44,242 nt of DNA. Source: an uncultured Gammaproteobacteria bacterium (GTDB lineage Bacteria; Patescibacteriota; Microgenomatia; UBA8517). Both the position numbers and the translations under genes were made by a program. Of this stretch, positions 9,574-12,634 are shown in pieces (positions within the stretch are counted from its first letter, which is position 1; each line of letters starts with the position of its first letter). The notes under the pieces were generated by a model. It saw only the letters and a list, made by a program, of their open reading frames with translations. It was not told the DNA's origin and searched no databases. The DNA lies in contig CAZTVZ010000001.1 of assembly GCA_964617045.1 (NCBI GenBank), positions 90,521 through 134,762 of the forward strand, read 5' to 3'.

Positions 9574-10077
9574 ATGGATAGGGTAGTGGTTGTAAACGAT
9601 AAAATGCAAAAGGATTATTCCTATCATCTTTCAGAAAAGATGGGGGATGGTTTTGATCCCGATTTTAAACCTGAATTAACCCCAAAAGAAATGCTAAAGA
9701 TGGGAGTATTCGGTGGAAAATACATGACAGATTGTGCAAGGGAATTTCCTAAAGATTGGTATACCGAAGCAAAATTAAATTCCGAAAAGCATGATCCTCA
9801 GTTGAATTATTTTGGTGTTAATGCTTCTCAACCCCTTTCCGTATGGAAGAAAAAGGGATGGATAAATAAACAGGATCCGAGGGGTTGGTTTCAATGGTAT
9901 TGTCGATATTTTATGGGCAGAAGAAGTCTTGATGACGAAAGACAAATCAAAAGATGGAAAGCCATCAAAAGACATATCGGTCAAATCAAAAAGAATTGTA
10001 AACCGAAAGACCTAAACTGCAGAAAAGTCCAAAGACAAGCCCTTCTTCATTGGGCTATTGATTCCAGGAAGATTTAA
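9574..10077 (+). CDS. Conserved hypothetical protein (TPxEML..GVFGGKY / DPRGWFQWYCRY..GRR family)
   Basis: Highly patterned Trp/Tyr/Arg motifs that I recall from an uncharacterised family; function unknown. Confidence 0.8.
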   Translation: MDRVVVVNDKMQKDYSYHLSEKMGDGFDPDFKPELTPKEMLKMGVFGGKYMTDCAREFPKDWYTEAKLNSEKHDPQLNYFGVNASQPLSVWKKKGWINKQDPRGWFQWYCRYFMGRRSLDDERQIKRWKAIKRHIGQIKKNCKPKDLNCRKVQRQALLHWAIDSRKI

Positions 10078-11024
10078 TGTCCTTTGCCGTGGAATGCTTG
10101 ATGAATATCCCTCAATTGCTTATTCGTAACGTGTGTATATATTTGAGTGGTTGCAATATTTTTATGGCCCAACATTTCCTGAACGCTTCTCAAGTCAGCT
10201 CCGGCCATTAATAGATCCGTTGCAAAAGAATGTCTCAATACGTGAGGTGTTACTTCCATGGGCAACTTAATTTTTCTTGCATAACCTTTGATCATTCTTT
10301 GAATGCTTCTTACAGTTAGCCTCATTTTTTCATCACCGGTTGAAGGATCTTTAGATCCTTTATGTCTTATAAATAAAGGCTTGTAGTGATCATTTCTGTT
10401 TTTGAGATAGTTGTCTATCCATTCCGCAGCTCTTCCGGAAAGGAATACCACTCTTGCCCTTCCTCCTTTTCCGACTATCCCAAACTCTTTTCTTTCCATA
10501 TCAATTTGATCCCTATTTAGTTTAGTAAGTTCGGAAACACGAAGCCCTGTTGAAAACAATACTTCGAGAATCGCCTTGTCTCTTTTTCCTTGTATTGTGG
10601 ATAATGTTGGAGCATTTAAGAGTCTGTCTACCATATCTCCGGTTAAAAATTTGACCGTTCTTTCGGGTATTTTCGGTAAATCAATTTTTTCGGGGGCCAT
10701 CACTTTAAGGTCATTTTTAATAAGCCATTTAAGAAAAGACCGTAATGCGATTACATGATAGCCTTGAGTTTTTCTCCCCAAAGTACCACCTTTTCCGTCA
10801 GTCAGTCCCGACAAATAGACCCTGTAAGACCTGACAACATCGGAATTGATGTCGTTTAGCCCTTGGTGAATATGTTCGTTTTCCAGATAATGAATAAATC
10901 TGTCCAAATAATGTTTGTAATTTCTTATTGTTAGGGGAGAGGAGCCTTTTTCGACTTGAAGATAACCCAAAAAATCAGTTACTTTTTTCGCAATTTCAGA
11001 CTGATTGGGCTGGGACTCAGTCAT
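10074..11024 (-). CDS. XerC/XerD-family tyrosine recombinase
   Basis: N-terminal SAM-like domain, LFSTGLRVSEL, HVLRHSFATDLL, LGHKNIATTQIYTH catalytic residues. Confidence 0.95.
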   Translation of the reverse strand: MTESQPNQSEIAKKVTDFLGYLQVEKGSSPLTIRNYKHYLDRFIHYLENEHIHQGLNDINSDVVRSYRVYLSGLTDGKGGTLGRKTQGYHVIALRSFLKWLIKNDLKVMAPEKIDLPKIPERTVKFLTGDMVDRLLNAPTLSTIQGKRDKAILEVLFSTGLRVSELTKLNRDQIDMERKEFGIVGKGGRARVVFLSGRAAEWIDNYLKNRNDHYKPLFIRHKGSKDPSTGDEKMRLTVRSIQRMIKGYARKIKLPMEVTPHVLRHSFATDLLMAGADLRSVQEMLGHKNIATTQIYTHVTNKQLRDIHQAFHGKGH

Positions 11025-11032
11025 GTTATTTC

Positions 11033-11061
11033 ATAATAATGTTTCACAGAGGATGTGTCAA
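11033..11061 (-). promoter_or_regulatory. sigma70 promoter of the xer gene (near-leaderless)
   Basis: TTGACA-17 nt-TATTAT-8 nt-ATG on the minus strand. Confidence 0.7.
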
Positions 11062-11084
11062 TAAGATTGTGCGACGTAGAAGAA

Positions 11085-11768
11085 TTATTTACCTACAAAT
11101 AATTTTTTATAAACAGGGTAGAGTGTCGGCTCCTTGTCCAAATCGACTTCGATTTCGTCATATTCTATTACCCTGGGCATAGGTTTAACTTTATAGTTGT
11201 ATCTATGTGGAACAAGCATAATTTCGACTTTGTCGTCAACTTCAAGAATTTTTTCTGTATCTTCCAAAGAATCTTCTATATGAAGTGCAATTCCAAGTCT
11301 TTTTATGGTATTCGCTTTGAACATTTTTCTTTCTTCACGAACATTCGTATTACAAAGATTTATTGTATTTTGATCGACAAAAGGAAAATGAATTTTAAAC
11401 CATTCCCTGGTCATTTCTGCGCTCCTAGCCTCACGGGAAGTAATTATCTGAGGCTTAACTCCATAATCGTAGAGTTTTCCAAGAAGAATTTCGGCTCCTT
11501 CAATGGGTGGAGATTTTAATAAAATTTCGGGCGTATACCATAATTTTATAAGCACTTCATAAGCTTCGGCTTCAGACAAACCTTCATCCATTGCCCAATG
11601 TTGGACACAATCCCAGTGATCCAAATCCGCAGGTTTTTTATTTGTTCCAAAAATTTTATTAAATTCTTCAACAACCGGAACACCTGAATAAGCAAGACAT
11701 CCATCAACATCGAAACTGATGTTGGAATATTTTAAAATTTCTCCTGTTCTAGGTCGTTCCAGTCTCAT
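11085..11768 (-). CDS. HAD-superfamily 5'(3')-deoxyribonucleotidase-like protein
   Basis: FDVDGCL motif I, ITSR motif II, HIEDS motif. Start placed at 11768 because TACAAT lies 7 nt upstream. Confidence 0.75.
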   Translation of the reverse strand: MRLERPRTGEILKYSNISFDVDGCLAYSGVPVVEEFNKIFGTNKKPADLDHWDCVQHWAMDEGLSEAEAYEVLIKLWYTPEILLKSPPIEGAEILLGKLYDYGVKPQIITSREARSAEMTREWFKIHFPFVDQNTINLCNTNVREERKMFKANTIKRLGIALHIEDSLEDTEKILEVDDKVEIMLVPHRYNYKVKPMPRVIEYDEIEVDLDKEPTLYPVYKKLFVGK

Positions 11769-12145
11769 TTCGGGCATTGTACACGAGGTAAATTAATAAT
11801 TCCATTGGAATATAAATTAGCCTCAAATATAACCTCACCAAATCGATTCTAAGGCCTGTCTAAATGAAAAGACGACTATCTATTCATCCCGTACTATTGG
11901 GCTTTTATGCAAATCGTTATTTTTATTATTAACACTATTTTGTAACTATTTTTCACAAACACTGGAAAACAGGGGAGGGGTACTAAACGATAAAATTCAT
12001 TTCGGGATAGTTTCGGTCGGAGAAAATAAATATCGAACATCAAAAACAGGGAAAATACATAGTAGTACAGTTACTTTTCGTTTTTTATGCCAGACATGTT
12101 CCTTAGCATACACTGACCTTATCCCTACCCTTACATTTTTAGAAT

Positions 12146-12173
12146 AGGTCGCAAAAGTTACATTGTGCGACTT
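12146..12173. other. Candidate dif-like Xer recombination site (11-6-11)
   Basis: AGGTCGCAAAA-GTTACA-TTGTGCGACTT; arms are 9/11 complementary. It lies in the long intergenic gap about 1.1 kb from xer, near the gene-strand switch. Confidence 0.5.
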
Positions 12174-12359
12174 ACCATATTCAAAGAGGCTGGGATGAAT
12201 AAATCATTAATTAATAAGTATTCAATACCATCGAGGGATAATCTAAAAAACATTGTGTAATAAATTTTAAAGGGTCTTCCCCGGTTGTTCCGTCTATCTA
12301 ACCGTTACACGCCTAGAAAGAGCGAAAGAGGCTCTTGTAGGCATATTAGCCTTGAAAAG

Positions 12360-12368
12360 TTATCCACA
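12360..12368 (+). promoter_or_regulatory. Consensus DnaA box
   Basis: TTATCCACA exact match; TTTTTCACA at 11949-11957 also fits TTWTNCACA. Confidence 0.45.
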
Positions 12369-12634
12369 GAGAGAAGGTTTAGAGGAATAATTACGTGTTT
12401 TCGTGCCTAGTAACTATATCATTGTGTATCACCATTTACCCCCAAGGGAAGTTTCGGGTTTTTTCCGCAATACGATTTGTCGCAAATTGTGAAAATTGTG
12501 AAGTATATTTGTGAAAATTAGCACTCCCCAGTCTTGATTAATAACCTATAATTATAGGGTGTGTACTACCCTCTCTCCCCTTGTCGGGGTATGTTTAAAT
12601 TTTTTTCTTATTTTGTGCGTAATCTGAAGCTAAT

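Follow-up and report, generated by a model that had tools for sequence, protein, structure and literature searches.

Does a 28-bp near-palindrome that lies upstream of a Xer-type tyrosine recombinase gene (xer) serve its host as dif, the chromosomal site on which a Xer recombinase acts? The question is raised by a stretch of 44,242 nt (hereafter the window), which spans positions 90521–134762 of contig C1 (GenBank CAZTVZ010000001.1) in a 715-kb assembly of 38% G+C and 11 contigs, designated G000 (GCA_964617045.1). The closest xer loci in our xer-locus comparison belong to Candidatus Woesebacteria, within the Microgenomates and the Patescibacteria. The latter, also called the candidate phyla radiation (CPR), account for a large part of bacterial diversity; to our knowledge, hardly any of their members are cultured, and their chromosome replication and segregation are essentially unstudied. 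We put at roughly three in four the probability that the 28-bp site is the chromosomal dif of a single-recombinase Xer system, which extends over the Woesebacteria and Microgenomates and about half of the Patescibacteria sampled.

Sequence and conservation of the site

On the forward strand, the site reads AGGTCGCAAAA (12146–12156), GTTACA (12157–12162) and TTGTGCGACTT (12163–12173), which on the xer strand corresponds to a left arm AAGTCGCACAA (12173–12163), a centre TGTAAC (12162–12157) and a right arm TTTTGCGACCT (12156–12146). The resulting 11-6-11 layout is an imperfect palindrome, the 11-bp arms of which are complementary at 9 of 11 positions, and the coordinates, letters, geometry and near-symmetry of the arms put forward in the original prediction, a reading of this DNA that preceded the present analysis, were verified. 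Inverted repeats of the 9-6-9 type with at most one mismatch occur 10 times in the window, compared with 8.8 ± 2.8 in dinucleotide shuffles, and the 10-mer ATTGTGCGAC, which recurs at the xer promoter, has 2 matches with at most one mismatch where 1.7 are expected. Since such window-only features are at chance level, the case rests on comparison with other genomes. A whole-genome scan with five known dif sequences returned no credible canonical dif, the best match having 7 mismatches.

For the comparison, the relatives were represented by 41 genomes from the family, order and class, the xer locus by 110 loci (30 from the relatives and 80 from public genomes), and the phylum by 121 genomes spread evenly over the Patescibacteria. 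A search with the pattern GTCGYACAA-N6-TTTTRCGAC, allowing at most two mismatches, mapped the full site to a single position in 40 of the 41 relatives, and the reversed pattern, used as a control, gave 9 scattered single matches in the same genomes. Across the 110 xer loci, the site is found upstream of xer and in the same orientation, 328–4403 bp from the gene, within a locus that is ordered as YebC, DUF5656, a gap of ~450 bp, the site, a variable slot, xer and a convergent gene of 876 aa. In the phylum sample, which was scanned with a tolerance of at most one mismatch, 53 of the 121 genomes contain the site, as against 1 match to the control, and nearly all of these 53 have it at one place. 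A search for the motif near xer genes of related genomes, which had been suggested as a check on the earlier proposal, accordingly recovered a site that is present once per genome, fixed in its orientation and traceable from the family to about half of the sampled phylum.

The pattern of variation within the site differs between the arms and the centre. Among 68 distinct host 28-mers, the cores of the arms are nearly invariant, and the central 6 bp are variable (TAATAC, TATAAC, TGATAC, TGTAAC and others). Preferred letters at the outer ends are A[T/C] and [G/A]T, both in these host sites and in 89 phage sites, which extends the arms to 11 bp; the flanks of the phage sites fit arms of this length as well. 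The Woesebacteria loci and the phages strictly retain the asymmetry between the arms (GCACAA versus GCAAAA). In the phylum sample, the right arm takes the form TTTT-, TTAT- or TTGT-GCGAC, and the TTGT form renders the two arms identical. Identical arms in certain lineages fit one recombinase that binds both of them, in agreement with the single recombinase that the near-symmetric arms had initially suggested. One variant from the Patescibacteria, GTCGCACAA-TGTATC-TTATGCGAC, shares 17 of the 24 core positions with E. coli dif; the agreement extends over the XerC arm, the centre and the inner part of the XerD arm.

The recombinase, FtsK and other recombinases

The 316-aa product of xer combines the Pfam domains Phage_integrase and SAM_1 and contains the catalytic set R, K, HxxR, H and Y of tyrosine recombinases, in the segments GLRVSE, GKGGR, HVLRHSF, GHKN and IYTHV. 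It scores 249 bits with the NCBIfam model of XerD (cut-off 330) and 248 bits with that of XerC (cut-off 335), which is below the threshold in both cases, and it passes the XerA_Arch model (NF040815) with 226.1 bits against a cut-off of 220, while XerD and XerC remain higher in raw bits. The closest solved structure is E. coli XerD (1a0p, 6e-41), followed by XerA (4a8e), and 5hxy is matched too. Orthologues across the Woesebacteria are 65–80% identical. At window position 10077, xer meets a block of genes on the opposite strand convergently, which was counted in favour of a terminus location. An FtsK is encoded by a 722-aa open reading frame (ORF) on contig C3, with the domains FtsK_SpoIIIE (1e-61) and FtsK_gamma (2e-28).

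A second Xer-like recombinase of 288 aa is encoded on the minus strand of another contig (G000:C4:47767–48633). It shares ~30% identity with the main Xer and scores 155 bits with the XerD model and 151 bits with the XerC model; the first His of its HxxR box is replaced by N, and its neighbour is a TrwB/VirD4-like coupling ATPase. A second, weaker recombinase match of this kind, with ~24–33% identity to the main Xer, is present in 39 of the 41 genomes. The earlier claim of a single Xer therefore stands insofar as there is one recombinase only of the XerD/XerA type, and falls short in that nearly all relatives have a second, divergent Xer-like recombinase, which leaves a single Xer likely rather than proven. 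A third tyrosine recombinase, an integrase of 368 aa with the domains Arm-DNA-bind_5 and SAM_5, adjoins a large protein on an 8-kb contig (G000:C10:4999–8190) that represents a mobile element or else contamination introduced by binning.

Three known classes were considered for the system and rejected. For the two-recombinase class XerCD, neither protein passes the XerC or XerD models, and the arms differ at one position or none. For XerS/difSL, the XerS model (NF003462) yields 130 bits against a cut-off of 267, confined to the C-terminal half, and the protein length of 316 aa and the 28-bp site do not agree with this class. For integrons, the integron integrase model (TIGR02249) fails with 132 bits against a cut-off of 265, and the genes in the slot are not accompanied by repeated flanking copies of the site.

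The xer promoter and the proposed mechanism

On the xer strand, the region in front of the gene reads GTCGCACAAT-CTTA-TTGACA-17 nt-TATTAT-8 nt-ATG, in which GTCGCACAAT is a lone left-arm half-site that lies between the stop of an NT5C-like ORF (11085) and the start of xer (11024). The recurrence of the arm sequence upstream of the -35 box of xer, as noticed in the original prediction, was verified, at a distance of 4 nt. The half-site is conserved with at most one mismatch in 87 of 96 distinct loci that offer at least 160 bp upstream of xer, and in 71 of those 87 it is followed after 1–5 nt, mostly 1 or 4 nt, by a TTGAC-type hexamer; the copy at the promoter is the left-arm version in every case. 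Elsewhere in the genome, GTCGCACAAT has three extra copies, the surroundings of which have nothing in common; they were treated as chance. The -10 element TATTAT stands 8 nt from the ATG, and no Shine-Dalgarno sequence is seen in this interval (11022–11038), so that the xer mRNA is probably leaderless or nearly so.

Conservation of the half-site right upstream of the -35 element is what would be expected of a Xer operator, and it lends support to the idea of autoregulation. A Xer monomer bound to the half-site would overlap the -35 region, which points to negative autoregulation, although activation from this position may be an alternative. Both parts of the initial proposal, a candidate CPR dif and autoregulation by Xer, are thus supported at the level of sequence, by conservation near xer and by the promoter half-site. 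We consider that the site is probably the dif of a single-recombinase Xer system and that autoregulation is probable too.

The mechanism that we propose begins with two monomers of the neighbouring XerD/XerA-type recombinase, which would occupy the near-identical 11-bp arms, A[T/C]GTCG[C/T]ACAA and its near-mirror. Synapsis of two such sites on a chromosome dimer would take place at the division septum, probably with the aid of the gamma-domain FtsK, and the dimer would be resolved via strand exchange over the 6-bp centre. At the lone left arm, 0–5 nt upstream of the -35 element, Xer would bind its own promoter, where the most likely effect would be repression through occlusion of the -35 element, by which Xer would be held at a set level. 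Phages without an integrase, both inovirus-like and tailed, presumably borrow the host Xer, either for integration at dif in the manner of integrative mobile elements exploiting Xer (IMEX) or for the resolution of their own multimers.

Phage contigs that carry the site

The exact pattern of the site is found on at least 103 IMG/VR contigs, as against 13 with the reversed control pattern. Carriers of the tailed type encode the large terminase (TerL), portal, primase and helicase, and small inovirus-like carriers encode Zot and a G2P-type rolling-circle initiator (Rep). Among the near-complete records (at least 90%), 5 of 6 are without a tyrosine recombinase (PF00589), and all 4 that were tested are without a serine recombinase (PF00239). 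When nine genes of the xer locus were sought on the viral loci, no clear homologue was found, the one match being a 24%-identical recombinase on locus L144; the viral loci are thus not fragments of the host xer locus. Of the 103 viral loci listed, 94 have the site between genes.

The carriers match the pattern that is expected of elements borrowing the host Xer, as IMEX and the LME-1 element of XerL do. Compared with IMEX, the dif-like site on integrase-less elements was seen, and an integrated copy flanked by sites was not found. Among the relatives, phage TerL was detected in a single genome, and the contig concerned is a separate one that lacks the site. In G007 and G035, where contigs end close to the site, the breaks were judged to be ordinary products of assembly. 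In many tailed phages, the site lies in a short gap that separates the small terminase gene from the large one, or immediately precedes the small gene (L137, L160, L172, L184, L192, L212, L220, L228, L238 and others). Integration of a tailed phage at a site in the terminase gap would split the packaging operon of the prophage, and in tailed phages the site may serve a packaging-related role.

A broader proposal, which we advance tentatively and with the odds against it, is that of one system common to the Patescibacteria, in which a single XerD-like recombinase acts on a dif with a "palindromised XerC arm", controls itself through a lone arm and provides a route to lysogeny or genome maintenance for CPR phages, including integrase-less tailed phages of 40–50 kb. 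If this were true, the latter would be the first tailed phages known to exploit Xer; we know of no established tailed IMEX.

Position on the chromosome

The minimum of the cumulative GC skew coincides exactly with dnaA both in G000 (C3, ~100.9 kb) and in G018 (127.9 kb), a complete relative. The site is found where the skew turns from positive to negative, yet off the maximum (Table 1), and its position is that of the terminus region rather than of the skew switch itself. Comparison with the skew extremum, which had been proposed as a further check, placed the site near the extremum and not at it.

In G000, G008, G017 and G018, a plateau of low or mixed skew of 25–76 kb separates the strongly skewed arms of the chromosome, and the site is situated at one edge of it (G000:C1 75–100 kb; G018 555–620 kb; G008 236–311 kb; G017 650–690 kb). 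A 15-kb block of G018 (595–610 kb) has both skew and gene orientation inverted. Regarding FtsK-orienting polar sequences (KOPS), the top strand-skewed 7- and 8-mers of G018 are generic T/G-rich words that mirror the base skew, and no specific polar motif was found among them.

The variable slot and the conserved gap

The slot between the site and xer (11085–12145 in the window) harbours 41 unrelated ORF families in 94 loci; it is empty in 36 of these and contains an NT5C-like HAD gene in 23. In G000, this gene lies outside the proposed mechanism. In certain genomes, insertions of 2–3 kb are also observed between DUF5656 and the site.

Between 11778 and 12634 (857 bp), no ORF of at least 60 aa, no tRNA and no Rfam family was found; the Rfam searches, run on the window at the gathering threshold and on the gap at E-values up to 10, gave matches at chance level only. 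The part of this interval between the site and DUF5656 is conserved and contains a perfect DnaA box (12360–12368), two to three copies of TTTTCACR (~12487–12520), an extended -10-like element TGATATAGT and the sequence GTCGCAAA (12479–12486). The DnaA box TTATCCACA, which reads TGTGGATAW on the xer strand, was recovered from 53 of 75 related loci, where its orientation never changes and its median distance to the site is 182 bp; the genome contains 17 perfect DnaA boxes in all. At least two copies of TTTTCACR occur in 55 of the 75 loci, and the extended -10-like element, TGATAYANT, in 56. The conserved DnaA box, ~180 bp from the site, might link the activity of xer and dif to the replication cycle, and the gap may harbour a promoter under DnaA control or a small RNA, reading in the direction of dif and xer. 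The sequence GTCGCAAA is present where the original prediction had placed it; it has 16 occurrences in the genome, on both strands, and this third arm-like element is kept in 14 of the 75 loci, so it is probably not essential.

Table 1. Features of the xer locus in window coordinates, and location of the site relative to the cumulative skew maximum in five genomes
Feature	Position	Strand	Basis or remark
Candidate dif core site	12146..12173	(-)	Sequence read and comparison across genomes
Left-arm half-site GTCGCACAAT, candidate Xer operator	11066..11075	(-)	4 nt upstream of the xer -35
Predicted xer promoter	11033..11061	(-)	-35 TTGACA 11061–11056, 17-nt spacer, -10 TATTAT 11038–11033
xer, 316-aa tyrosine recombinase, XerD/XerC/XerA type	10074..11024	(-)	Profile matches and catalytic residues
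NT5C-like HAD nucleotidase gene	11085..11777	(-)	Pfam NT5C 8e-10; in the slot between site and xer
Conserved non-coding gap, DUF5656 gene to site	12174..12634	(-)	Alignment of 18 loci
Site in G000 (C1)	102.7 kb		Skew maximum 76.6 kb; offset 3.6% of genome
Site in G018	620.9 kb		Skew maximum 585.9 kb; offset 4.5%
Site in G017	650.6 kb		Skew maximum 689.6 kb; offset 4.8%
Site in G008	236.4 kb		Skew maximum 312.8 kb; offset 7.8%
Site in G010	577.3 kb		Skew maximum beyond the stretch read; offset at least 100 kb

Evaluation of alternative explanations

Several observations weigh against the assignment of the site as dif. Taken within the window alone, the site and the half-site do not rise above chance. 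In four genomes, 26–76 kb (3.6–7.8% of the genome length) separate the site from the skew maximum, and in G010 the distance is at least 100 kb, whereas predicted dif sites of Proteobacteria and Firmicutes are usually within ~1.4% of the skew shift point (PMC3025954). In four complete genomes, the site is 133–141 degrees from dnaA, which makes the replichores unequal, and the gene-orientation maximum falls at the site in G008 only. The conserved second Xer-like recombinase could be the partner or the true enzyme. No prophage flanked by copies of the site was found, the enlarged intervals being without second or hybrid copies, and in tailed phages the site is often beside or between terminase genes, where packaging sites also lie.

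Part of these observations would be accommodated if the site were a recombination target and not mainly a place of dimer resolution, that is, an attB- or attI-like hot spot at which phages and cassettes are captured by Xer or by a second recombinase. The variable slot, with its 41 unrelated ORF families over 328–4403 bp, the insertions of 2–3 kb on the other side of the site, the phages that carry it, its offset from the skew maximum and the conservation of a second Xer-like recombinase are all consistent with this explanation. However, a strictly single-copy site that is conserved from class to phylum in genomes of very small size speaks for a housekeeping function, the inserted genes are without flanking cassette-type repeats or hybrid copies, the score for an integron integrase is half of what the model asks (132 versus 265 bits), and the genome has no other dif candidate. 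Given that known dif sites double as integration hot spots, the two roles are compatible, and a hot spot in place of dif is considered unlikely. Somewhat less likely still is that the palindrome and the half-site are operators of another protein, for instance a regulator from the host or a phage, or a factor that organises the terminus, with the linkage to xer reflecting regulation only. Palindromes of this size are typical of operators, a half-site is located at a promoter, the phage site is intergenic in most of the listed loci and often beside terminase genes, and the features of the window by themselves are at chance. Yet one copy per genome would be unusual for a regulon, and the asymmetry of the arms together with an 11-6-11 layout and a variable centre are hallmarks of the core sites of tyrosine recombinases; moreover, the core is similar to that of E. 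coli dif, integrase-less inovirus-like elements, which are the classical exploiters of Xer, are among the carriers, and the locus offers no candidate for a linked regulator gene, the constant neighbour of the site on its promoter side being xer.

The inverted repeat might instead work through its secondary structure, either a transcript hairpin or a cruciform, and serve, for instance, as a terminator or processing site of an RNA from the gap, since a stem of 9 bp with a single mismatch could close a loop of 6 nt and the conserved -10-like element in the upstream gap points toward the repeat. What decides this case is the variable position of the arms (C/T on the left, G/A on the right), for which the 68 distinct host 28-mers are distributed as CG 25, CA 25, TG 10 and TA 8. 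The two arms thus assort independently, with many C-A or A-C mismatches on either strand, which argues against a base-paired hairpin of RNA or DNA; conservation of the sequence without conservation of the pairing fits two protein-bound half-sites rather than a helix. In addition, the repeat is not followed by a T-run and has no match in Rfam, the same 28-mer occurs in unrelated phage contexts, and the copy at the promoter is a lone arm that is unable to pair. The RNA hairpin was rejected on the independent variation of the arms, and a structural role of the repeat is regarded as very improbable. The assignment of the site as the dif of a single-recombinase Xer system is thus preferred over all three.

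Comparison with known Xer systems

No paper on dif or Xer in the CPR was found in the literature. A single-copy dif would provide a landmark with which CPR genomes can be finished and oriented, and would help coverage-based estimates of growth rate. The 316-aa enzyme and the 28-bp site are accessible to work in E. coli or in vitro, for which the host need not be cultured. For viruses, the site on integrase-less phage contigs offers a sequence handle for their assignment to CPR hosts, and its carriage hints at the exploitation of Xer beyond filamentous phages.

The archaeal XerA/dif system (Pyrococcus, Thermoplasma; PMC5357621) is alike in that one recombinase of XerC/D size acts on a 28-bp dif of 11-6-11 layout, and the CPR protein passes the XerA_Arch cut-off and matches the structures 4a8e and 5hxy. 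Archaeal dif has been reported at 122–144 degrees from oriC, often so and sometimes in a module with xerA (PMC5357621), which is comparable to the angle from dnaA given above. However, archaeal XerA acts without FtsK, whereas the CPR host is a bacterium with a gamma-domain FtsK; the arm sequences differ, and the best solved relative of the CPR protein is the bacterial XerD. No description of a conserved promoter half-site for archaeal XerA was found in the literature.

XerS/difSL of streptococci and lactococci (PMC1914069; Nolivos 2010, PMC2965235) and XerH/difH of Helicobacter and Campylobacter likewise employ a single recombinase and a module of site and gene, and FtsK is involved in both. 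For difSL-xerS, Le Bourgeois et al. 2007 (PMC1914069) had already raised the possibility that the recombinase regulates its own gene by binding at or close to the promoter, a speculation for single Xer enzymes that the conserved half-site of the CPR makes directly testable. In contrast to the CPR Xer, XerS and XerH are longer (~355 aa), and difSL measures 31 bp instead of 28 bp. Furthermore, the full site in the CPR is 0.3–4.4 kb away across a variable slot, and it is a separate half-site, not dif, that lies on the promoter.

With XerCD/dif of E. coli and most bacteria, the CPR system shares a 28-bp site of 11-6-11 layout in one copy per chromosome, a location in the terminus region and FtsK-gamma; up to 17 of 24 core positions match E. 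coli dif, and the CPR recombinase is closest to XerD. Unlike in XerCD/dif, both arms resemble the XerC arm and are nearly or fully identical, only one recombinase of XerC/D grade is present, site and gene are linked, and the distance to the skew switch exceeds the ~1.4% typical of other bacteria. The XerL/dif system of the Legionellales, which was found via a mobile element with a dif mimic (PMC9765430), and the IMEX (LME-1, CTXphi, VGJphi, TLCphi; PMC9765430, PMC5357621) offer the parallel of a lineage-specific single-recombinase dif that is betrayed by mobile dif mimics. They differ from the present case in that integrase-less tailed phages of 40–50 kb carry the CPR site and that no integration at the chromosomal site was observed. 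By analogy, the CPR system would work like XerA, XerS, XerH and XerL, and it would differ from each of them by its enzyme class, its site sequence or its separate promoter half-site.

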